A program made the translations under genes and the position numbers. The notes beneath the pieces are model-generated. The model saw nothing but the letters and a program-made list of their open reading frames with translations. It did no database searches and was not told the DNA's origin. A stretch of DNA of 20,000 nucleotides from an uncultured virus (IMG/VR IMGVR_UViG_3300034198_023361) (lineage: Duplodnaviria; Heunggongvirae; Uroviricota; Caudoviricetes), in the IMG/VR virus record IMGVR_UViG_3300034198_023361. The stretch is one strand, 5' to 3'. Every line of letters begins with the position of its first letter. Positions within the stretch are counted from its first letter, which is position 1. This document shows, one piece after another, positions 657-19,183 of this stretch.

Positions 657-663
657 CCCGCAT

Positions 664-735
664 TGCCTGATAGCACAATGGTAGTGCACGGCACTGTTAA
701 TGCTGGGGTTGTAGGTTCGAGTCCTACTCAGGCAG
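664..735 (+). tRNA. tRNA-Asn (anticodon GTT), CCA not encoded
   Basis: Acceptor stem TGCCTGA/TCAGGCA, D-stem GCAC/GTGC, anticodon stem CGGCA/TGCTG with loop CTGTTAA (GTT at 696-698), T-arm GTAGG-TTCGAGT-CCTAC, discriminator G735. Confidence 0.95.
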
Positions 736-749
736 TTTGAAAGCGCGCT

Positions 750-2195
750 ATGGACAGCCTCTCAGCACTTGATCCGCTCTCGTGGGACCCGCAGTATTAT
801 CGCGAGCATCCCGCCTACGCCGCCGGCAACGCGCTCGGCTGGCTCTACCGCAGCGGCAACAAGCAGGCCGCCACAAGTTATCCGCTTGCTGGTCGGCTCT
901 ATCTCGCCAAATCTGGCTGGCTTTTGTTATCTGTACCGAATGCGCTCGTCCGCGGCGTATTTGACGCGTTAACCGAACCCGGCGTTGAATTACCGACTGC
1001 TGGCGTGTTTAACGTTCCAAACGTTAAGGGCGATCTGGTAAATGCGCATATATCAATCATGACGGCCGATGAGGTAGCATCTATCGGTGCTGACAAGATT
1101 AACGAGCGCGGCCACATGTTTGGCTACACGCTGGGCGGGCTGAAAGAAATCGACGTCAAAAACGTCAACGGTGTAAGCAAAGTTTGGGCAATTCAAGTTT
1201 CCGCCCCGGGACTTTCGGCGCTGCGAAAGAGTTACGGACTGTCGGCTCTTCCCAATGACGACCACCCGTTTCACATTACGGTCGCTGCCAGACGTAAAGG
1301 CGTCCTGCTCGACAACGGCAAGTCGAAGGGTTACGAAACCCCTGCCGAAACGACGGAAGGGCAGCGGTTTAGTAACCCCATCAGCAGGGGAGAGCTTAAA
1401 GCCGCCGCAGAACTTTCCCGCTCGGGACAAAACGACCTGTTACCGGGTGGAAAAGCCGATAATGTTCCCGATCGGGATTTTTCTGTACCAGCGTTAGCCG
1501 AAGGAGCTAAACATGAGCACGAACACACAAGAGACGATCAAATCGCCAAAGAAATTGCCAAGGATCATCTGCAAGAAGACCCGCTGTACTACGAAAAAAT
1601 CGAAAAAATAGAGAAGGGCGCGGAAGAAGAACCCAAAGTTAAGAAACCGAACACTCTCGACGAGTTGCGTGCGGCGAAAACCCACTCCGACCGCCGTGAA
1701 TACGATCGCAAGCACGAGATCTTGCGGCGATTAATCTCGCAATCGCCGCAGGATTGGAACGTCGATGATCCTAAGCCGAAATACAAAGGCATTACGCACG
1801 GCCCGACCAAGTTTCGGTTTCATGCGCCCGCCGGAGTGATCGGTTCGCAGGTTAAAGCCGCTGACAATAGTGTGTATGCGCAGCAGTTCCGCAACTTACT
1901 CGATCTGCGAACGCCGTTTGTATACGACCACAACAAACCAGTGTTCGCAAACGTGACAGACCATCTGCTCAAGGCTAAACAGCGGGGTGATTTCATTCTG
2001 GCGTCGCGACAGAAGTCGCATTTGTATCGCTCGATGCTCGATCCGCAGTATAGATATCAAATGGCGCAAGCCGCCGCGACCGGAACACTGCCGCAAATGA
2101 ACATGTTCGATAAGGCAACACAGCTATACGGCAATGACATCTTTGACACCATTCAAAACTGGGGGAAAAACAATGGAAACGCCGCTGCTCGATAA
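750..2195 (+). CDS. Modular protein: N-terminal 2H-phosphoesterase (LigT/Acb1-like) domain, DUF5661-like domain and two unknown segments
   Basis: Paired HxS/HxT motifs: HISI (1047-1058) and HITV (1272-1283). The segment GAKHEHEHTRDDQIAKEIAKDHLQEDPLYY (about 1437-1607) matches the E-x-EH...A.EIA.DHL.E.P.YY pattern I recall for DUF5661. No Cys. Confidence 0.7.
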   Translation: MDSLSALDPLSWDPQYYREHPAYAAGNALGWLYRSGNKQAATSYPLAGRLYLAKSGWLLLSVPNALVRGVFDALTEPGVELPTAGVFNVPNVKGDLVNAHISIMTADEVASIGADKINERGHMFGYTLGGLKEIDVKNVNGVSKVWAIQVSAPGLSALRKSYGLSALPNDDHPFHITVAARRKGVLLDNGKSKGYETPAETTEGQRFSNPISRGELKAAAELSRSGQNDLLPGGKADNVPDRDFSVPALAEGAKHEHEHTRDDQIAKEIAKDHLQEDPLYYEKIEKIEKGAEEEPKVKKPNTLDELRAAKTHSDRREYDRKHEILRRLISQSPQDWNVDDPKPKYKGITHGPTKFRFHAPAGVIGSQVKAADNSVYAQQFRNLLDLRTPFVYDHNKPVFANVTDHLLKAKQRGDFILASRQKSHLYRSMLDPQYRYQMAQAAATGTLPQMNMFDKATQLYGNDIFDTIQNWGKNNGNAAAR

Positions 2196-9456: not shown

Positions 9457-12400
9457 ATGCCAGCCCCCGAGCTGCCTGAGTTAAAGTCGTCGATGATGCC
9501 CGCGCCCGCTGCGCCCACGATGCGCACATTTGGCGATGTTGGCATGATGCGCGATAACATCTTCAATCAGGCGTTGACGAGCGCGCAGAGCCTCAAACCG
9601 CTGCAAAACGACCTGTATACGTTGCAACTCCAAGACGTTGGTTACACAGGACCTGAACGTTTTACAAGGTCAGATCAGAAGACAGCTGTCCTTTCTAGAG
9701 GGACACTTGCCCGCCGGCTGCAAGGTACGTGGACGCTTACAGATAACAAAACCGGCCAACCCGTCGGCCAACGCCGCGCCACGATAGCCCACGTGCCGTA
9801 TCTCACTGACTCTGGCACGTTCGTTAACGGCGGCGTTGAGTACACCCTTGCGCATCAGATGCGGTTGCGCCCCGGCGTGTTTACCCGCGAAAAAGACAAC
9901 GGCGAAATCGAGGCGCACGTAAACACGTTACCGGGTAAGGGTCGTTCGCATCGGTACTTCCTCGACCCAAAGACTGGCGTGTTCAAGATCAGCATCGGGC
10001 AGGCGCAGATCCCGCTTATGCCGCTGCTCAAATCCATGGGCGTGACCGATCAAGATATTCGCAAGGCGTGGGGCAACGAGATTACCGCGGTTAACATGGA
10101 GAAGGGCGACGCGGGCACGATGGACAAGATCTACGCGCGCCTTGTAAACAAACCCGTCGCCGGCGCAGACGCTATTGCCAAAGCGCAGGCCATCGCCGCC
10201 GAGTTTGCCAAGACCGAACTTGACCCGGAAGTTACACGTCGCACTCTGGGGTCTGAATACAAAAACATGACGCCAGAGACTATTCTGGCGATCACTAAAA
10301 AATTAATCGCAGTGAATCGCCGCGAGGCCGAAAGCGACGACCGCGACAACATGGTGTACCAGTCCGTTGTCGGCCCTGAAGACCTCATTGCCGAGCGGTT
10401 TACCAAAGACCGGCAATCTCTTAACAAACTGCTCTGGAAAGCAACCGCAAAGAAGTCAATCGATCACATCCCATCAGGCGTGTTCGACAAAGCTATCTCG
10501 GCGGCGCTCATTGGCAGCGGACTTGGGTCGAGCCTAGAAGAAATCAACCCGGCCGAGATCTTTGACCATCAGACGCGCGTGACCCGAATGGGCGAAGGCG
10601 GCATCGGCTCACTGGACGCCGTGCCCGCCGAGTCGCGTTCGGTCCAGCCCAGCCATCTTGGGTTTATTGACTACCTCCGCACGCCCGAGTCTGGAAAAGT
10701 GGGCGTCGACATGCGGTTTGCCCGCGGCGCCATGAAAGGCTCCGACGGCAAGATATACACGCCGGTTGTAGATATGAAAACCGGTGAAAAGGTGTACAAA
10801 ACACCGCAAGAGCTGGCCGACACGCCGCTCGTGTTTCCGGGTGAAGAAGATAACAACCTGCCCGTTGTGGCTGCGCTTGTTAACGGCAAACTGAAGTACG
10901 TACCGCGGAAAGAAGCGCAGTTCAGTTTGCCGAACATGGACACGACGTTCTCGGCCCTCACGAACATGGTGCCAATTAAATCCATGATCAAAGGCCATCG
11001 TGTGATCATGGGCAGTCGAATGTTTACGCAGGCGCTTCCGCTCGTAAACGCTGAAGCGCCCTTACTGCAGTCCGCTAAAGCTGATGATGAAAACGTTTCG
11101 CACGAAGACGAGATGGGCGAGAAACTTGGTGCCACGCGCGCAACTGAGCGGGCACAAGTAGTTGACGTGACACCCGACGGTATCGTGCTGCGCGACAAAG
11201 ACGGTAATAAGAAGACAATCGATCTCTATAACGAGATGCCGTACAACCGTAAGACGTTCTTACATCAGACGCCGCTTGTAAAGCCCGGCGACACGATCGA
11301 ACCCGGGCAGCTGCTGGCAAGGTCAAATTTTACTGATCAAAACGGTAGCGCAGCGTTAGGGCTTAATCTGCGTACAGCGTATTTGCCTTTTCGCGGCAAG
11401 AACTACGAAGACGCTGTAGTTATTTCTGAATCTGCATCCAAGCGGCTGACGTCTGAGCATATGTATCAGCACGAAGCCGAGTGGGACGACAACACTCACG
11501 TTGGCAAGAAGGCGTTCGTGAGTTTGTTCCCGACTGAGTATGACAAAAAGTTTCTTGATCAATTTGACGACAATGGCGCGATTAAAAAAGGCGCCGAGGT
11601 CAAGTTTGGCGATCCGCTCGTACTTGTGGCCAAAAAGAAAGACACAGTGTACGGCAAAGTGCATCGTGGGCGCGCCGGTAACTTCACTAACGAAACGATT
11701 ACGTGGGATCATCACGCGCCCGGAATTGTGACCGACGTTATGCACACCAAAAAGGGTGTCAGCGTCGTGGTGAAGAATCAATCGCCCATGGACGTAGGCG
11801 ACAAGCTTACCGGTCGCTTTGGCGATAAAGGCGTCGTGGCCGAGATTGTCCCGGACGATCAGATGCCCAAAGACCGCGACGGCAACCCGTTTGAAGTGCT
11901 GGTCTCGCCGTTGGGGTTGATCAGCCGTATTAACCCCACGCAGGTGATTGAAGCGGCGCTCGGTAAAGTTGCTGCCAAAACCGGCAAACCGTACAAGCTC
12001 AAAGATTTTGATAACAAGCGCGACCTAATTGAGTTTGCGCAAAAAGAATTAGCCGCGCACGGGTTGTCCGACACTGAAGATGTAATCGATCCAGAAACAG
12101 GCCGCAAAATCGGCGGTGTGCTCACGGGTAATCGGTTTTTCATGAAGTTGCATCACACCAGTGAATCAAAGGCGCAGGGCCGGTCGATGGGCGCGTATAC
12201 CGCCGAAGGTACGCCAGCGAAAGGCGGCAGTGAGGGCGCCAAGCGCATCGGTATGTTAGATCTTGGCGCGCTGCTATCTCACGGCGCCGGCAAAGTTATT
12301 CGCGACGCCAAGATGGTGCGCGGCCAAGCTAACCCAGAGTACTGGTCGCAGTTCATGGCTGGTTACACCCCGCCACTGCCCAAAGTGCCGCACGTCTATG

Positions 12401-13860
12401 AGAAATTCGTCACGCAGCTGAAAGCGTCTGGTATCAACGTTGTGCGCAAGGGCACCCGTTCAAACCTGATGGCGATGACGGACAAGGACGTCGACGAACT
12501 AGCCGGCCCACGCGAGTTAAAAAGTTCTGAGACCGTGGACTGGAAAGGGCGGCTCAAGCCTATTGCCGGTGGGCTATTTGACGAGACATTAACAGGCGGA
12601 CACGGCGGTAACCGGTGGAGCAAGATCACGCTGCATGAGCCGCTGCCCAATCCCGTCATGGAAGACCCGATTCGCCGCGTGTTGGGCCTGACCGAGAAGC
12701 AGTTCCGTGGTGTGCTGGCTGGCCGAGAGCAGCTAGGCGATAAAACCGGTCCCACAGCGATTAAATCTGCGTTGGAAAGAATTAACTTGCCGAAGGCGAT
12801 CGAACAGGCGCGGGAAGATATCAAATCCGGGCGTAAGACACTGCGCGACGCCGCAGTAAGGCGGCTAGGATTTTTAAAGAGCGCTGAAACAACCGGCGTG
12901 CACCCCAAGGACTGGATGATCAGTAAAGTCCCGGTGCTGCCGCCGCTTTTCCGCCCCGTCAGCACGATGGGTAGCAAGAAGCTACCGCTCGTTGCTGACG
13001 CTAATTATCTGTACAAAGAACTGCTCGACGCGAACGATACGCTGAAAGAAGCGTCTGGCGCACTATCTGACTACGGCGACGAACGCCTGAGCGTGTACGA
13101 CTCGATGAAGGCTGTTACCGGGTTAGGCGAGCCGCAACAGCCCAAGAACGTCGAGCGTAATGTCAAAGGTTTCCTGCGGCACGTGTTTGGCAACTCGCCT
13201 AAGTACGGCACTGTTCAGCGTAAGCTGCTCAGCTCGACGGTAGACCTTGTCGGCCGCGCTGTCATCACACCAAACCCCGATCTCGACATGGACGAGGTCG
13301 CGCTACCAGAAGAGAAGGCGTGGGACATTTACAAGCCGTTTGTTGTCCGCGGCCTTGTCCGCCGCGGCCTCCCGCGTATGCAGGCCATGCAGGCGGTCGA
13401 GGATAAGAACAAAGAAGCGTTTGCTGAGTTAAATCAGCAGATGTCATCGCGGCCAATTGTTATCAACCGCGCCCCAGTACTTCACCGTTACGGCATGATG
13501 GCGTTTTACCCCAAGTTAACTAAAAACAAAGTCATGGAAGTGAACCCCGTAATTACCAAGGGGTTTGGCGCCGACTTTGACGGCGACGCGATGCAGTATC
13601 ACGTTCCGAGTACAGAAGACGCCGCAAAAGAAGCTGTTGAAAAGATGCTGCCAAGCAAGAACTTGTTTGCAACAGCGACGTTTCGGGCGCACTACGTTCC
13701 TAACAAAGACTACCAGACTGGGTTATACTTGGCGTCCAGTCGGATCAGTAAAAAAGCCAAACCCCGCGTGTTTCGTAGCAAGCAGGACGCCGTGCAGGCG
13801 TACCGGCGAGGCGAAATAGAGGTGGACACCCCGGTTCATATTGTGGAAGATAATACGTAA
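9457..13860 (+). CDS. DNA-directed RNA polymerase: full beta subunit fused to the N-terminal part of beta' (RpoB-RpoC-N-like)
   Basis: Beta motifs: GTFVNGGVEY...RPGVF, NYEDAVVISE, GDKLTGRFGDKG (11797-11832), MKLHH, and C-terminal LKASGINV (about 12420-12441). In-frame beta' motifs follow: PVLPPLFRP, GRAVI, NRAPVLHR and catalytic ADFDGD (13570-13587). Confidence 0.95.
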   Translation: MPAPELPELKSSMMPAPAAPTMRTFGDVGMMRDNIFNQALTSAQSLKPLQNDLYTLQLQDVGYTGPERFTRSDQKTAVLSRGTLARRLQGTWTLTDNKTGQPVGQRRATIAHVPYLTDSGTFVNGGVEYTLAHQMRLRPGVFTREKDNGEIEAHVNTLPGKGRSHRYFLDPKTGVFKISIGQAQIPLMPLLKSMGVTDQDIRKAWGNEITAVNMEKGDAGTMDKIYARLVNKPVAGADAIAKAQAIAAEFAKTELDPEVTRRTLGSEYKNMTPETILAITKKLIAVNRREAESDDRDNMVYQSVVGPEDLIAERFTKDRQSLNKLLWKATAKKSIDHIPSGVFDKAISAALIGSGLGSSLEEINPAEIFDHQTRVTRMGEGGIGSLDAVPAESRSVQPSHLGFIDYLRTPESGKVGVDMRFARGAMKGSDGKIYTPVVDMKTGEKVYKTPQELADTPLVFPGEEDNNLPVVAALVNGKLKYVPRKEAQFSLPNMDTTFSALTNMVPIKSMIKGHRVIMGSRMFTQALPLVNAEAPLLQSAKADDENVSHEDEMGEKLGATRATERAQVVDVTPDGIVLRDKDGNKKTIDLYNEMPYNRKTFLHQTPLVKPGDTIEPGQLLARSNFTDQNGSAALGLNLRTAYLPFRGKNYEDAVVISESASKRLTSEHMYQHEAEWDDNTHVGKKAFVSLFPTEYDKKFLDQFDDNGAIKKGAEVKFGDPLVLVAKKKDTVYGKVHRGRAGNFTNETITWDHHAPGIVTDVMHTKKGVSVVVKNQSPMDVGDKLTGRFGDKGVVAEIVPDDQMPKDRDGNPFEVLVSPLGLISRINPTQVIEAALGKVAAKTGKPYKLKDFDNKRDLIEFAQKELAAHGLSDTEDVIDPETGRKIGGVLTGNRFFMKLHHTSESKAQGRSMGAYTAEGTPAKGGSEGAKRIGMLDLGALLSHGAGKVIRDAKMVRGQANPEYWSQFMAGYTPPLPKVPHVYEKFVTQLKASGINVVRKGTRSNLMAMTDKDVDELAGPRELKSSETVDWKGRLKPIAGGLFDETLTGGHGGNRWSKITLHEPLPNPVMEDPIRRVLGLTEKQFRGVLAGREQLGDKTGPTAIKSALERINLPKAIEQAREDIKSGRKTLRDAAVRRLGFLKSAETTGVHPKDWMISKVPVLPPLFRPVSTMGSKKLPLVADANYLYKELLDANDTLKEASGALSDYGDERLSVYDSMKAVTGLGEPQQPKNVERNVKGFLRHVFGNSPKYGTVQRKLLSSTVDLVGRAVITPNPDLDMDEVALPEEKAWDIYKPFVVRGLVRRGLPRMQAMQAVEDKNKEAFAELNQQMSSRPIVINRAPVLHRYGMMAFYPKLTKNKVMEVNPVITKGFGADFDGDAMQYHVPSTEDAAKEAVEKMLPSKNLFATATFRAHYVPNKDYQTGLYLASSRISKKAKPRVFRSKQDAVQAYRRGEIEVDTPVHIVEDNT

Positions 13861-13880
13861 TCGTTAAACATGGAGGCTGT

Positions 13881-14609
13881 ATGTTCACGGTCAACCCCGA
13901 ACTTATCGCGCTCGCGAAAGCGCGTTTTGAAAAATCTGCATTAGTGCCCGGAGCGGCGGTGGATCCCGCTGCTGCTGGTGGTGCTCCGCCGGTTGACCCA
14001 GCCGCCATGGGGGCTGTACCGCCGGCCGATCCGTCTGCTGTTGCTGCAGCAGCGGCACCGCCAGCAGATCCAGCGGCTATGGGAATGGCGCCTCCCGCTG
14101 CACCTCCCGCAGCGCCCGCCGCACCCGCCGCTCCGGGCGCAGCTCCTGCTGGTGCGCAGCAAAAGCTCAAGCCCGAGCAGATGATGCAAATGCTCGACTA
14201 TCGTCTGTACAACATGCAGCAGCAACTTACTGCAATTATGAACGCGATGGGCGTGCAGGTTCCGCCGGAGTCGCTAGTCCTGCCGCCGGGAACGACTGGC
14301 GCCCCGCCGGCCGAAACTGCGCTTCCGGGCGGGCCTATGGCGCCCCCGCCGCAAGATCCAAACGCGCAGGGCGGTATGCAGCCGCCGGGCGGCCCGACAC
14401 CTCCGGGCGGGCCCATGCCGCCGAACGCCGCGCCGCCAGAAGGTGACCCGTCGAAGGCCGCGTGGTGGGACCGCCACGAAAAATCAGCGTCTTCGATCGG
14501 CCGCCCGTTCGGCCCCGGCTATTCCAATCCGAACGCGCCGACGCAGATGCAAATCAAAGCAAACGCTATCGCCGCCATGATTCGGAGCATAGCGGACAAT
14601 GCTGGTTAA
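13881..14609 (+). CDS. Pro/Ala-rich, largely disordered protein with a central helical segment
   Basis: GGAGG RBS. Imperfect (V/A)DPAA(M/A)G repeats, a helical MMQMLDYRLYNMQQQLTAIMNAMG segment, and EKSA motifs near both ends. Confidence 0.75.
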   Translation: MFTVNPELIALAKARFEKSALVPGAAVDPAAAGGAPPVDPAAMGAVPPADPSAVAAAAAPPADPAAMGMAPPAAPPAAPAAPAAPGAAPAGAQQKLKPEQMMQMLDYRLYNMQQQLTAIMNAMGVQVPPESLVLPPGTTGAPPAETALPGGPMAPPPQDPNAQGGMQPPGGPTPPGGPMPPNAAPPEGDPSKAAWWDRHEKSASSIGRPFGPGYSNPNAPTQMQIKANAIAAMIRSIADNAG

Positions 14610-14838
14610 AACGCAACACAGTCTGCAGCCCAGCGAAAAAAAAGCACACAGCGTGATTGTCGAAGACGATCTCGGCAATCCGCTGTTTGTTGCTATTCAA
14701 GTTGATGAAGCCATTGTTTACTCAACAGTTGGCGAGAAAGAGTTTCACTCGCTGCTGCGCGCACTCGGTGTCGACAAAACGGTCGTCGTGTCCGAATTTC
14801 AGCCGAAGTCGATGCAGAAAATAATGTGGACGCCGTGA
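14599..14838 (+). CDS. Small hypothetical protein (79 aa)
   Basis: Overlaps the upstream stop and ends 1 nt before the beta'-C ATG. Confidence 0.65.
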   Translation: MLVKTQHSLQPSEKKAHSVIVEDDLGNPLFVAIQVDEAIVYSTVGEKEFHSLLRALGVDKTVVVSEFQPKSMQKIMWTP

Positions 14839-14839
14839 C

Positions 14840-16720
14840 ATGCTAAAGACAACGCTCGGCCAACTTCTGATTAACGAGGCGTTGCCGCCAGAAATGCGCG
14901 ACTATGATCGCGTATTGAATAAAAAAACTATGTCAAACGTGGCGACTGATCTGGCCAAGAACCACCCAGAAAAATATCGTGACGTGATGAAGCGGCTTCA
15001 CGATATTGGTCGCGACGCTGGATATACCACAAACGGCCTGTCGTTCAGCCTCAAAGACATTCGCCCCACGCTGGCCGCGCGACACGTGCAGTTGCGCGTG
15101 CAGAACCAGATGCGCGATCTCTTTGCTGACAAGCGTCTTGATGAAAAACAGCGCAACATCAAGTTGCTTGAACTAGCGCAGACCGCGCAACAAGAGCTGC
15201 TAGACAAAGTGTATAAAGAAGCTGAGGGGCAAGATAACCCACTCGCGCATCAGATTTCTGGGGCGGGCGTGGGCAACAAGTTTCAGCTGAACTCAATTAT
15301 TGGCGCCGACATGCAGTACCTCGATCACCGCGGCGACCCGATTCCAATTCCGGTGCTGCGCGGGTACAGCCAAGGCTTGCGGCCTGTGGAATATTTTGCC
15401 GGAGCATTCGGCACGCGCAAAGGTGTTATCGACCTCAAGACGGCTACAGCTGACGCCGGTTTCTACGGTAAACAGCTGGCGCAGATGACGCACCGCCTGC
15501 TGGTTACAGCCGACGACGATGACGACACGGACGAAGAGCGGCGCATGGCCGCAGAAGAGCGCGGCTACCCGACTGACGTAGACGACCCCGACAATGAAGG
15601 CGCTTTTCTTGCGCGAGCCGTTGGGCCGTACAAGCGCAATACGATGCTGACGCCCAAAATTCTGCGGGATCTGAAAGAAAGCGGCGCTAAAGATATCTTA
15701 GTCCGCAGTCCGATTGTCGGCGGCCCGGGAGACGGTGGAGTTTATGCGAAAGACGTCGGTTACAGGGAAAAGGGGCGTTTACCGCCTATTGGAGATTATG
15801 TGGGTATCGCGGCAGCACAAGCGCTGTCGGAACCAGTCACGCAAAGCCAGATCAGCTCGAAGCATTCTGGCGGTGTCGGCGGCGCAGGCGCGATTTCGGG
15901 TTTTAAAGCGCTCAACGCGCTTGTACAGGTCCCGAAGAAATATCCAGATGGCGCCGTGCACGCCCAGCTTGACGGCCGGGTACAGGAAGTTCGTCCGGCT
16001 CCGCAGGGCGGCCACTATGTGCAGATTAACGGTCAGGACCACTACGTTCCGACGGAGAGAAATCTTTCGGTTAAAAAGGGCGATGAGCTTGAGGCTGGCG
16101 ACGTTATATCAGAAGGTATGCCAAATCCGGCAGAAATTGTCCGCCACAAGGGCGTAGGCGAGGGGCGGCGTTACTTTGTGCAGGCCATGCGGCAGGTCAT
16201 GGGTAACAGCGGTATTACAGCTCATCGCCGCAACATCGAGCTACTGGCGCGTGGGCTTGTAAATCATGTGCGCCTCACGGACGAATATGGCGATTATGTG
16301 CCAGATGATGTAGTGCCGTATTCATCGATCGAACGAAACTGGACTCCGCGTGAAGGTAGCGTATCTGCCGCACCCAGCACATTGACCGGGCATTATTTAG
16401 AAAAACCAGTACTGCACTATTCAATCGGCACGAAGATCGGTAAAAACGTGCTGACAAACCTAAACAAATACGGCGTAAAAACAATTCAAGCGCACAAAGA
16501 GCCACCGCCGTTCCAGCCTGAAATGGTCCGCGGTATGGCTAACATATCCAACGACCCTGACTGGATGACCCGTATGTTGGGCTCGTATCAAGAAAAAGGG
16601 CTTATGAACAGCGTGCAGCGCGGTTTAAGCAGCGATACCGCGGGCAGCAGTTATGTGCCTTCTTTAGCCCACGGCGAGCAATTCGGTGTAACAGGCGCAA
16701 CAAGCGGGTGGAAGCCTTGA
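14840..16720 (+). CDS. DNA-directed RNA polymerase, C-terminal part of beta' (RpoC-C-like; bridge helix and trigger loop)
   Basis: Starts with TTLGQLLINEALP. Bridge helix GLRPVEYFAGAFGTRKGVIDLKTATADAGF (from 15374). Trigger loop region GDYVGIAAAQALSEPVTQSQISSKHSGG (15791-15874). Also contains HRRNIELLAR. Confidence 0.92.
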   Translation: MLKTTLGQLLINEALPPEMRDYDRVLNKKTMSNVATDLAKNHPEKYRDVMKRLHDIGRDAGYTTNGLSFSLKDIRPTLAARHVQLRVQNQMRDLFADKRLDEKQRNIKLLELAQTAQQELLDKVYKEAEGQDNPLAHQISGAGVGNKFQLNSIIGADMQYLDHRGDPIPIPVLRGYSQGLRPVEYFAGAFGTRKGVIDLKTATADAGFYGKQLAQMTHRLLVTADDDDDTDEERRMAAEERGYPTDVDDPDNEGAFLARAVGPYKRNTMLTPKILRDLKESGAKDILVRSPIVGGPGDGGVYAKDVGYREKGRLPPIGDYVGIAAAQALSEPVTQSQISSKHSGGVGGAGAISGFKALNALVQVPKKYPDGAVHAQLDGRVQEVRPAPQGGHYVQINGQDHYVPTERNLSVKKGDELEAGDVISEGMPNPAEIVRHKGVGEGRRYFVQAMRQVMGNSGITAHRRNIELLARGLVNHVRLTDEYGDYVPDDVVPYSSIERNWTPREGSVSAAPSTLTGHYLEKPVLHYSIGTKIGKNVLTNLNKYGVKTIQAHKEPPPFQPEMVRGMANISNDPDWMTRMLGSYQEKGLMNSVQRGLSSDTAGSSYVPSLAHGEQFGVTGATSGWKP

Positions 16721-16801
16721 ACCTGTTTTTGTAGGATATAGGGACCGCGACGCAGTAAATTAATGCTGTGTCTAATTTTGAGCGCAGCATGGAGGCTGGC
16801 C

Positions 16802-19183
16802 GTGTATAACAAAAAAGCGAAAGAGTCGTCTGTTAAGCATTGGTTGAAGGTAATGCAGTCGTATGACCGCACCCAGACCAAATATGCCGATCTAGGCGGC
16901 AAAGGCGACGACACCTCCTTCGAGCAGTCGTTTAGCAATCTGGCCCACGCCTATCTGCGCGATTCGGCCCCCAAGCTGCTCGACCACGAAATTGGTTTCC
17001 AGCTTCTCGACCGTAACCGGGAAAACACCAAGGCGGTTGGTGTTTTTGCGTTCAAGGTTGGCTCTAACTGGCTGTATGCGCCGGTGTTCTTCCTCAACGG
17101 CGACCTCAAAGGCCACGAACTCCTGTATATCAAAAATCAGGACATGTTCGTACCGCTTAAGGAAAACTGGATTAACTACCTGATCAACCGCAAGCCCAAC
17201 ATTCTGGGTAGCGGCGTGCAACGCAACCTGTCGGGCATGGGCCAGCGCCAACCGGACTTTACGCAGCTTTCGCGCAGCCCGGCCAAGTTTGGCTCTGCGC
17301 AGCCCACACTCAAAGAGATGATGACGGCTGCGATGCCGGCTCTCGCCAAGAGCGCTACGTTAAATACCGCGCAGGCGTTCAAGGAAATGGGCGACGCGCT
17401 GAACCTGAAGACGTTTCTGAAACAGGCTGGCCGTGAAGTAATCGGCACGCTTATTAACACGTGCAAGCACGCCCCGCAGATCGCCTCCGCCATCGATGAA
17501 TTCTATGGTTTAGATATCATCAAGGAAGCGATGGCCGAAGCGAAGAAGCGTGAACTCGCCGCCAGCGCCAAGATAGCCAGCGTGCTGTCCGAAGCGCCCA
17601 AGAAACCCGCCGCCCAAGCCGGTCTGAAGGTCATCACGTATGATGCGACGGTGCAGACCAAGGCCCCGCACGGCTACACGGAAGAAGATCAGGAGAAGTT
17701 ACTGCGCGACGGCGTGCTGATCCAAGACCAGCGCGACCGCGACAACGTCTCGGTGCCGTATCACATTCAGGTCGAAAAGAAGCTGTTTAATCCGACCGAA
17801 AGCGGCCTGTACGAGATTCTGGTCAAGCCGGGCAACATCGAGCGTTGCTACGTTGCCGTACATCCGCAAGGCGCCGTCAAGCGTGAAAACTTCATCACCG
17901 TCGTGCGCGTCGATGGCGCGCGTAACTGGTTAAACACCCGCGCTGACCAAGTCTTTGCGCTGGCGCGCATTGAGGGCGAAGAGTTTGACAAGTGGTTTGA
18001 CAGCCTGCCGGAAGCCAACAGCGTTCCGAGCAAGGATGCCCGTTACATTGCGCTCAGCAAACGTAACGACACTACTGCGCCGTTTCGCGTGATCAAAGAG
18101 TACGGCAATAGCGAAGATAGCACGATTTACGAAGTGCATCTTGAGGATCACTCAAAGTATCCGCCCAAGGGCAGCGTTTGCGGCAGCTGCTATACCGACC
18201 CGCTGAACTACGACAAGTACCGCGACGGTGTTCGAATTCACCTTAACGGTAAAAAGGGTTCCAGCCTGCGCGCCAGCATGGGCGACATTTTTGTGCCGGA
18301 GGGTTTCAAGCTTCTTAAGGTGAGCAAAGGCGAAGATGACGCCGAAAACGCGGAAGATCAGAACGCATGTGGTTGTGGTGAGAGTGATCCGCCGGCCCTG
18401 ATGCCCGGCAACCTTGTTGACGCGCAACTGGCTCTTATGCAAAAGACCGCCGCGCTGACGGTTTATCACAACGGCTCGTCGGTAACGATTAACAAAGAAG
18501 CCAACCTGAACCCGATCAAAGCGCTCGTTACGCTAGTGGAACACCACGGCCTCCGCGAGCAGGCTGCCCGCGAGATCTTGAAACAAGCGGCCGCCAAGCG
18601 CAAGTTTGAGTGCCGCGTTAAGTACGCCGACCCGTACGGCGGCCCGATGATGATCAACGGCGCTCCGTCAGCGCCGACTGATCCGGGTCCGGTAATGGGC
18701 GGCGAAAGTATCATGGGCACAAACGTTCCTACACAGCTTGGCATTGATACCGCCATGCAGGTGCCGGGCATGAGCGCTAGTCAAACGGACCGCAGCGTTT
18801 ACAACCCGAATACGCTGCTCGACCAAAAAGACGTTCGTTCTGTTATTGATGCCGCGCAGAGCGGACAGCGCGAGGTGTTCGACACCGCGATGGTCGGCGC
18901 CATGTTGCGTGCCGTTCGAGACGACTCGCTTGTCGATAGGTACATGGGCGAGCTGACCAAGGGCCTCGATAAGCTCGGCCGTATCCTGTTCATGTTCTAC
19001 TGGCACGGTGACCGGTTTGCCGAACGTTACGGCAAGGCCGACATGCCGGAACTGGAAGACTCGCTGCGCAACGCGTTTGAAATGCTAGGCGACGTCATTC
19101 TGTTCCTCAAGCAGAAGACGATTGAGCCGTACCCGGAAGAAGCCGCGCAGGATATTGATCTTGGCGCTATCGCAAACGCTTAA
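16802..19183 (+). CDS. Large hypothetical protein (about 793 aa), possibly virion-associated
   Basis: GGAGG (16791-16795) precedes an in-frame GTG at 16802. Many K-x-A motifs. No catalytic motif recognised. Confidence 0.8.
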   Translation: MYNKKAKESSVKHWLKVMQSYDRTQTKYADLGGKGDDTSFEQSFSNLAHAYLRDSAPKLLDHEIGFQLLDRNRENTKAVGVFAFKVGSNWLYAPVFFLNGDLKGHELLYIKNQDMFVPLKENWINYLINRKPNILGSGVQRNLSGMGQRQPDFTQLSRSPAKFGSAQPTLKEMMTAAMPALAKSATLNTAQAFKEMGDALNLKTFLKQAGREVIGTLINTCKHAPQIASAIDEFYGLDIIKEAMAEAKKRELAASAKIASVLSEAPKKPAAQAGLKVITYDATVQTKAPHGYTEEDQEKLLRDGVLIQDQRDRDNVSVPYHIQVEKKLFNPTESGLYEILVKPGNIERCYVAVHPQGAVKRENFITVVRVDGARNWLNTRADQVFALARIEGEEFDKWFDSLPEANSVPSKDARYIALSKRNDTTAPFRVIKEYGNSEDSTIYEVHLEDHSKYPPKGSVCGSCYTDPLNYDKYRDGVRIHLNGKKGSSLRASMGDIFVPEGFKLLKVSKGEDDAENAEDQNACGCGESDPPALMPGNLVDAQLALMQKTAALTVYHNGSSVTINKEANLNPIKALVTLVEHHGLREQAAREILKQAAAKRKFECRVKYADPYGGPMMINGAPSAPTDPGPVMGGESIMGTNVPTQLGIDTAMQVPGMSASQTDRSVYNPNTLLDQKDVRSVIDAAQSGQREVFDTAMVGAMLRAVRDDSLVDRYMGELTKGLDKLGRILFMFYWHGDRFAERYGKADMPELEDSLRNAFEMLGDVILFLKQKTIEPYPEEAAQDIDLGAIANA

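Follow-up and report, generated by a model that had tools for sequence, protein, structure and literature searches.

Cysteine (Cys) is almost totally suppressed in the proteins of the N4 and DEV ejection operons (gp50-52 and gp71-73, respectively) and in the T7 core proteins gp14-16, against the background of a normal proteome, and in N4 and DEV this suppressed set includes an RNA polymerase (RNAP) that is packaged in the virion and ejected. The DEV paper reports such suppression in 191 Schitoviridae, throughout their ejection operon, refers to a 2002 N4 paper for gp50 and quotes an older proposal that links the missing Cys to a route through the periplasm (PMC11445570); the idea is therefore already in print for N4-like phages, and the principle is not new. 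Here we analyse a 20,000-nucleotide (nt) stretch of DNA, hereafter the window, from an uncultured virus of the Caudoviricetes (IMG/VR record IMGVR_UViG_3300034198_023361), in which two genes encode a Cys-free RNAP of the bacterial beta/beta' type that has also lost both beta' zinc sites. An initial reading of the bare DNA letters (the original prediction) had proposed that this enzyme is packaged and then ejected unfolded through an oxidising periplasm, as a convergent counterpart of the N4 virion RNAP (vRNAP).

The likeness to N4 is functional and no homology is claimed; the N4 vRNAP is a single-subunit, T7-like enzyme whereas that of the window is of the beta/beta' type; N4-like and T7-like phages are also short-tailed and have a trans-envelope channel, whereas the window's phage type probably has a contractile tail. 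Direct counts bear out the original prediction on N4, with no Cys in the 3500 amino acids (aa) of gp50, nor in gp51 (644 aa) or gp52 (150 aa), giving 0 in 4294 aa, as opposed to 2 in the portal, 11 in the 160-kDa protein and 4 and 9 in the RNAPII subunits. The same holds for T7, where gp15 (0/747) and gp16 (0/1318) together have none in 2065 aa and gp14 has 1 in 196, as opposed to 12 in T7 RNAP. The packaged RNAPs of crAss-like phage phi14:2 and Thermus phage P23-45, which the accessible literature says transcribe early or pre-early genes, are distant, single-chain two-barrel enzymes without recognisable Pfam Rpb domains and without a sigma partner. The phi14:2 RNAP gp66 (GenBank gp077) has 2 Cys in 2180 aa and the proteins flanking it (GenBank gp076 and gp078) have 1 in 1421 and 1 in 1797, against 0.8-1.75% in replication and metabolic enzymes, and gp96 of P23-45, an RNAP fused to a tape measure, has none in 5002 aa. 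With Cys avoidance present in the unrelated packaged polymerases of N4, phi14:2 and P23-45, the word 'convergent' is a fair one.

A packaged RNAP of the beta/beta' type is described for the jumbo phage phiKZ (gp178/gp149/gp180/gp80) in the literature text available, which for phiKZ-type phages also describes an RNAP-linked Swi2/Snf2 helicase. The beta'-N chain of the phiKZ vRNAP is without the Cys cluster of the zinc ribbon; gp55 of the non-virion enzyme (nvRNAP) carries a CxC..CxxC cluster, a zinc finger has been published for its gp74, and the accessible part of a comparative survey gives nvRNAPs a zinc ribbon. Unlike the window's phage type, which has one detectable RNAP set of two chains and uses a sigma70-like factor, phiKZ has two paralogous sets split into 4-5 chains. 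The non-virion RNAP of Bacillus phage AR9 is likewise a beta/beta' enzyme, for which the N-terminal beta' zinc domain (Zn1) was not observed according to the published text at hand (PMC7618050); it resembles the window enzyme in this respect and differs from the enzyme proposed here in being non-virion. No description of a phage RNAP of the beta/beta' type that is Cys-free or zinc-less turned up in a search of an open-access library; in their accessible text, the phiKZ nvRNAP papers mention zinc or cysteine for the nvRNAP zinc sites only, and the word 'cysteine' does not occur in that of a preprint on crAss-like RNAP.

The nearest cultured relatives of the window's phage are Salmonella phage Arash and the Vibrio phages D69, D148 and D181, which have the same two-chain architecture, in which one chain joins beta to the N-terminal half of beta' (beta-beta'N) and the other is the C-terminal half (beta'-C). 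The large chain of the window is 32% identical to Arash Gp206 over 99% coverage (D69 0261 also 99%), and the small chain is 24% identical to Gp216 over 75% coverage (D69 0264 also 75%). Both types are without Zn1 and nearly without Cys, have homologous sigma and SNF2 helicase proteins and, at the sensitivity of Pfam, possess one RNAP set per genome. They differ in the second beta' zinc site (Zn2), of which the Arash-type beta'-C retains the four cysteines whereas the window's clade has all four replaced, as well as in the spacing of the RNAP genes (about 1 kb in the window and about 4.8 kb in Arash), and their identity is only 24-32%.

Between them the two genes specify the core enzyme of a bacterial-type, two-chain RNAP, the one multisubunit RNAP that could be detected in this phage (Table 1). 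The large chain (1467 aa) matches PF00562 (Rpb2_6; E = 2.6e-49) over residues 584-915 and then PF00623 (Rpb1_2; E = 3.8e-24), and its residues 1371-1379 read GADFDGDAM, in which the D-F-D-G-D columns are invariant in a multiple alignment. The small chain (626 aa) matches PF04998 (Rpb1_5, the bridge helix and trigger loop region; E = 5.1e-24), and a profile built from it and 52 relatives finds solved bacterial beta' chains with E = 3.8e-84. Related sequences sit on IMG/VR contigs of about 190-235 kb, and a 98%-identical relative, G001 (205,044 bp, CheckV completeness 100%), stands in for the proteome of the window's phage. Per genome there is one PF00562 place and one PF00623-bearing gene, and no second RNAP was found in G001 by Pfam, nor by phmmer or hmmsearch with filters off, with the limit that the Pfam search detects only one of the two RNAP sets of phiKZ and that a highly divergent second set could escape it. 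A DFDID motif in G001 was rejected as a second RNAP, as the 1534-aa open reading frame (ORF) hosting it is a collagen-like fibre. Being the sole RNAP detectable in these genomes, the enzyme must also function inside the cell.

There is no Cys in either chain (0/1467 and 0/626, together 0/2093), exactly as first noted. TGT and TGC codons are absent in frame from both genes and frequent off frame (74 and 47 in the large gene, 33 and 20 in the small one), so the absence of Cys is a protein-level constraint. It could be supposed instead that a Cys-poor lineage happened to have two long proteins without any, and it would fit such a view that nine of the 21 ORFs listed in the window, and not the RNAP alone, are Cys-free; this also qualifies the original statement that nearby proteases and the 793-aa protein use Cys normally, which holds for the M10 peptidase (5 Cys in 275 aa) and for the protein then counted as 793 aa (here 806 aa, 8 Cys). 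The window ORFs other than the RNAP have 38 Cys in 4277 aa. The codon contrast speaks against chance, as does the composition of G001, whose 242 ORFs, called with a simple greedy caller, have 932 Cys in 63,628 aa (1.46%); at this rate a lower-tail binomial test of zero Cys gives p = 4e-10 with the large chain and 1e-4 with the small one, and the trait is kept down to 46% identity. Chance and base composition are refuted as an explanation, and genome-wide Cys depletion, which the original prediction had named as fatal to its reading, is not the cause, since the G001 proteome is normal in Cys.

Conservation of the trait was followed at several depths. The best 120 of 1423 large-chain homologues at E <= 1e-3 (75-100% identity) have no Cys in 107 cases and one in 5, while the other 8 are 1801-1822 aa long with 11-15 Cys; of the best 120 small-chain homologues (74-96% identity), 115 have none and the other 5 are proteins of 1005-1023 aa with LAGLIDADG/Hint annotations. 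An exhaustive small-chain search returned 4201 representatives, and in the best 150 of these, at 46-57% identity, the RNAP-aligned part has no Cys in 92, one in 46, two in 10, three in 1 and five in 1. At the DNA level, the 63 complete large-chain frames, which run from stop to stop and may include upstream residues, have no Cys in 46, 1-3 in 12 and 13-17 in 5 (1825-2212 aa). Some of the 10 long representatives scanned have LAGLIDADG and Hint domains, and wherever a junction is clear, in the 21 sets of intein junctions inspected, the intein supplies its own Cys1 and the extein +1 residue is Ser; splicing would therefore yield Cys-free chains, which also explains many of the single Cys. Intein sites recur around residue 412 in the large chain and around residues 190-210 and 330-343 in the small chain, with 330-343 adjoining the invariant K341/H342, and some proteins hold two or three inteins. 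Inteins interrupt the large chain in relatives P0008, P0028, P0065, P0069, P0077 and P0080, and the small chain in P0172-P0225 and many of P0241-P0390.

Both zinc sites are gone from the window enzyme, and the positions originally given for them, GLFDETLTGGHGGNRWSKITL for the deleted ribbon and VTADDDDD and VRSPIVGGPGDGGVYAKDVG for the lost ligands, proved exact. At Zn1, a 32-residue block that in Salmonella beta' holds C70, C72, C85 and C88 is missing from the window, Arash and D69 alike. The CxC..CxxC cluster occurs in none of the best 120 of the 1423 large-chain homologues and in none of the 63 complete locus frames, all 63 of which (52-98% identity) have a GLFD motif. The N-terminal zinc domain is called common to all multisubunit RNAPs in the accessible text of one paper. 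At Zn2, the E. coli-numbered ligands C814, C888, C895 and C898 are replaced by D227, G294, Y302 and D305, with an identical register in the profile alignment to solved beta' chains, and VTADDDDD lines up with the Salmonella beta' motif VTEDDC and the Arash-type motif V/I-T-x-x-D-C. Among 31 window-type sequences the first column varies, with acidic residues in the majority (D 13, A 7, E 6, G 3, H 1, S 1), and the others are nearly fixed as G (30/31), Y/F (30/31) and D (31/31). Arash-type sequences have Cys at all four columns in 22 of 22 cases; their beta'-C has exactly 4 Cys in 113 of 120 and 5 in the other 7, with the spacing C-x(40-60)-C-x6-C-x2-C in 119 of 120. No close homologue that was counted or aligned retains Cys zinc ligands, a finding on which the original prediction had staked itself. 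From these comparisons, the simplest order of loss would be the Zn1 ribbon, then the non-ligand Cys, and then Zn2 in the window's clade.

Evidence for packaging is indirect and comes from Arash, through Table 2 and other text of PMC10585845. In purified particles Gp206 (3516 spectra, 128 unique peptides) is the most detected protein of all, and by spectra Gp216 is fifth (1210); the sigma factor Gp10 (24 unique peptides) and the helicase Gp217 (38) are also there (PMC10585845). Using that table we labelled 128 Arash proteins of at least 150 aa, taking at least 7 unique peptides as robust detection; gene numbers beyond about gp240 were moved by one to fit the GenBank labels, a mapping that is a matter of judgement. 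The 52 robust particle proteins have 110 Cys in 24,128 aa (0.46%), compared with 1.13% in the 36 weakly detected and 1.33% in the 40 undetected proteins (robust vs rest, Mann-Whitney p = 2e-6). Within the robust set the counts are 1/1525 for Gp206, 4/606 for Gp216, 0/472 for Gp217, 0/234 for Gp10, 0/1097 for Gp4 and 2/2548 for Gp229, and the four Cys of Gp216 align with the bacterial Zn2 ligands. The two Arash sigmas differ in the same direction, as the packaged Gp10 has no Cys and gp196, undetected in particles, has 3. The best reading of this homology, at 24-32% identity, is that the window RNAP would be packaged in the virion too.

It might still be that the enzyme is not packaged and that the loss of Cys and zinc answers a need inside the cell, such as coping with scarce zinc or oxidative stress during infection or resisting host defences that target thiols. 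The need for the only detectable RNAP to work in the cell fits this, and the published text on AR9 shows a non-virion enzyme that is also without Zn1. We nevertheless regard it as quite improbable, as the Arash homologues dominate the particle proteome, replication enzymes of G001 keep their Cys (for example 16 in the 1055 aa of DNA polymerase A), and the experimentally established ejected proteins of four unrelated phage groups bear the identical signature.

The signature in the window's clade is also selective as to which proteins it marks. Seven G001 ORFs pass a Bonferroni-corrected test for Cys depletion, namely both RNAP chains, the SNF2 helicase (1/744), a 2H-SAK/NUDIX/DUF5661 protein (0/612), a collagen-like fibre and two proteins without an assigned family (1566 aa with no Cys and 869 aa with 1). 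The sigma70-like protein has no Cys in 284 aa and is too short to pass. By BLAST the helicase resembles Arash Gp217 (33%) and the sigma Arash Gp10 (29%), and sigma homologues from distant genomes (36-42% identity) have no Cys in 5 of 5. The portal homologue of G001 (8/640) and its gp236-like (7/1077), gp222-like (10/485) and gp234-like (10/437) proteins, which are shared structural proteins, use Cys at normal levels; the Cys-free signature marks the RNAP, the sigma and other enzymes but not the shared structural proteins. The constraint is thiol-specific, given that methionine (Met) is not reduced in the Cys-depleted set (2.63% vs 1.91%).

This selectivity bears on a further explanation, in which the RNAP is packaged but shed its Cys and zinc so as to withstand prolonged storage in oxidising surroundings outside the cell and not for passage through the tail or periplasm. 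The roughly 3-fold Cys depletion of Arash particle proteins as a class is in its favour, and so are the Cys-free major coat protein, gp17 and gp57 of N4 and the Cys-free head proteins of P23-45. Yet the four structural proteins of G001 just listed have 0.65-2.3% Cys, one collagen-like fibre has 69 in 1534 aa, and Met, which is likewise prone to oxidation, is undepleted; we consider storage as the driving force unlikely.

A probability of roughly 0.6 seems right for the overall reading that the window RNAP is packaged, ejected and refolded and was selected for the loss of thiols, in which packaging is drawn from homologues, and loosely folded ejection and metal-free reassembly from analogy. New copies of the RNAP would be packed into the capsid with the phage's sigma-like factor and other enzymes, the chains, loosely folded, would exit together with the DNA by way of the narrow tail channel, and once inside the host they would come together again to carry out transcription of the earliest phage genes. 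Proteins making this journey would be selected against thiols, which could cross-link as disulfides while stored or in transit; any Cys4 zinc site would also have to recover its metal on refolding. The lineage may have lost the beta' zinc ribbon first and then been purged of non-ligand Cys, giving the state seen in the Arash type, before the Zn2 ligands gave way to a fixed G/Y/D motif.

Several points weigh against this reading. Packaging, which the original prediction put forward for the window enzyme, has been measured only in a relative of 24-32% identity, Arash, which keeps Zn2. The Arash particle list of 116 proteins takes in ribonucleotide reductase, ligases and primase, and its authors allow for carry-over (PMC10585845); the top rank of the RNAP is the meaningful part of the list. 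Neither zero Cys nor loss of Zn2 is required for packaging, as the packaged Arash enzyme keeps Zn2 and the phiKZ vRNAP has 16 Cys in 2614 aa (0.61%), about half the level of the nvRNAP (33/2850, 1.16%) and a partial exception to the pattern. The loss of Zn1 is not tied to packaging, since Zn1 is also missing from the non-virion AR9 enzyme. P23-45 makes a weak case, because its proteins are Cys-poor overall, and even for N4 unfolding, ejection and refolding are models, with a 2026 N4 paper presenting vRNAP unfolding and refolding as yet to be demonstrated. The SNF2 helicase was found, with whole and partial queries, in only 1 of 5 distant genomes, where the copy has no Cys, and a beta'-C extension homologous to a G001 cargo protein occurs in only 5 of the best 150 of the 4201 representatives. 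Finally, Arash is a myovirus according to the text at hand (PMC10585845), and its gp236, with a sub-threshold sheath match, has a homologue in G001, so the window's phage type probably has a contractile tail; its cargo may therefore travel inside the tail tube and not through the periplasm. The 'oxidising periplasm' of the original prediction is the weakest part of the explanation.

The step-wise series from the bacterial enzyme through the phiKZ non-virion enzyme and the Arash type to the window's clade would tie the loss of Cys and zinc to a packaged lifestyle. Both beta' zinc sites are regarded as standard in bacterial-type RNAPs, and a large natural clade in which both sites and all Cys have given way to a conserved motif without thiols shows that the fold can dispense with them; in a window-type RNAP one could also study a redox-inert and metal-independent form of the enzyme. 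A cargo-specific Cys signature extends an N4-like rule to contractile-tailed jumbo phages and provides a cheap, sequence-only predictor of injected proteins. More tentatively, and with rather more doubt than belief, Cys avoidance might mark a whole injected 'ejectome' of this jumbo-phage clade, comprising the RNAP chains, sigma, SNF2 helicase, NUDIX/2H/DUF5661 enzymes and giant proteins. The separate chains of a complete, sigma-dependent, bacterial-type holoenzyme would then enter the host metal-free and loosely folded and assemble again there, the zinc-less enzyme also running middle and late transcription. If this were true, Cys depletion relative to a phage's own proteome could predict injected cargo in unculturable phages.

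Fusions in the relatives give a view of the candidate cargo. Under the standard code (table 11), beta'-C reads without a break in 4 of 18 distant loci as an ORF of 918-1452 aa that contains 0-1 Cys. The extensions are enzyme arrays or a helicase related to other Cys-free proteins, and include acylphosphatase, P-loop kinase and DUF5661; DUF4269 and DUF5661; and NUDIX and an SNF2 helicase 44% identical to that of G001. The accessible text of one study describes 'polyvalent proteins' predicted to enter with phage DNA (PMC5512222). The beta'-C enzyme arrays may resemble these, a reading of our own, as DUF5661 and 2H-SAK are not named in that text. The 481-aa window protein with 2H-SAK and DUF5661 domains is 47% identical to C-terminal extensions fused onto beta'-C in the relatives P0263 and P0268, and its counterpart in G001 additionally has a NUDIX domain.

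Table 1. Features of the RNAP locus and its surroundings, in window coordinates.
Feature	Coordinates	Strand	Basis or remark
RNAP large chain, beta fused to beta' N-terminal half, 1467 aa, 0 Cys	9457..13860	+	Pfam, Arash Gp206 homology
Site of missing beta' N-terminal zinc ribbon (Zn1), GLFDETLTGGHGGNRWSKITL	12571..12633	+	Alignment gap
Catalytic Mg-binding loop ADFDGDAM, beta' double-psi beta-barrel (DPBB)	13570..13593	+	Motif search
RNAP small chain, beta' C-terminal half, 626 aa, 0 Cys	14840..16720	+	Pfam, profile, Arash Gp216 homology
VTADDDDD, acidic run with D227 (codon 15518-15520) in place of the first Zn2 ligand	15503..15526	+	Alignment
VRSPIVGGPGDGGVYAKDVG, former Zn2 ligands 2-4, now G294, Y302, D305	15701..15760	+	Alignment; codons GGC, TAT, GAC
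Transfer RNA (tRNA) gene, tRNA-Asn (GTT)	663..736		tRNA scan; just upstream of 2H-SAK/DUF5661 gene
Multidomain protein, 481 aa, 2H-SAK phosphoesterase + DUF5661, 0 Cys; candidate co-packaged cargo	750..2195	+	Pfam
ORF, 285 aa, 0 Cys, ends 3 nt before RNAP start codon	8596..9453	+	Present in 42/73 related loci
Pro/Ala-rich ORF between RNAP genes, 242 aa, 0 Cys	13881..14609	+	tblastn match in 65/73 related loci
Possible ORF, 79 aa, 0 Cys, ends 1 nt before beta'-C start codon	14599..14838	+	ORF listing
ORF after beta'-C, 806 aa (from first ATG), 8 Cys	16763..19183	+	Conserved in 71/73 loci

The window is phage DNA, in which Pfam and PHROG identify, among other ORFs, the 2H-SAK/DUF5661 protein, a peptidoglycan-binding M10 peptidase and one with a tail-tip domain, and tRNA and Rfam scans of it found nothing besides the tRNA-Asn. 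Neither the 242-aa ORF between the RNAP genes (no Pfam or PHROG match) nor the 285-aa ORF upstream of them (no family above the curated cut-off in Pfam or PHROG) could be assigned, and the possible 79-aa ORF has no detectable similarity to, and is not alignable with, the small ORFs at the equivalent position in Arash and D69. A Pro/Ala-rich linker followed by extra domains is also part of beta'-C in some relatives. None of the C-terminal extensions of beta'-C in relatives matched the 806-aa ORF, whose copy in G001 has a weak similarity to the Arash particle protein Gp218 (E = 7e-5). This ORF contains CGSC and CGCG clusters that are a possible metal site.

Two further observations concern G001. 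Its most significant Cys-depleted ORF encodes the 1566-aa Cys-free protein (187353-192053, minus strand), a candidate injected protein whose gene lies upstream of the Cys-free sigma gene among consecutive ORFs that are all Cys-free or Cys-poor; neither Pfam nor PHROG assigns it to a family, Atlas matches are at chance level (0.81-0.86) and it shows no similarity to Arash Gp4 (E = 0.43). The collagen-repeat fibre with 69 Cys (4.5%) is encoded at 165786-170390 on the minus strand, beside four ORFs with 1.5-3.8% Cys, and the external fibres of G001 appear to be disulfide-rich, the opposite of its cargo proteins.

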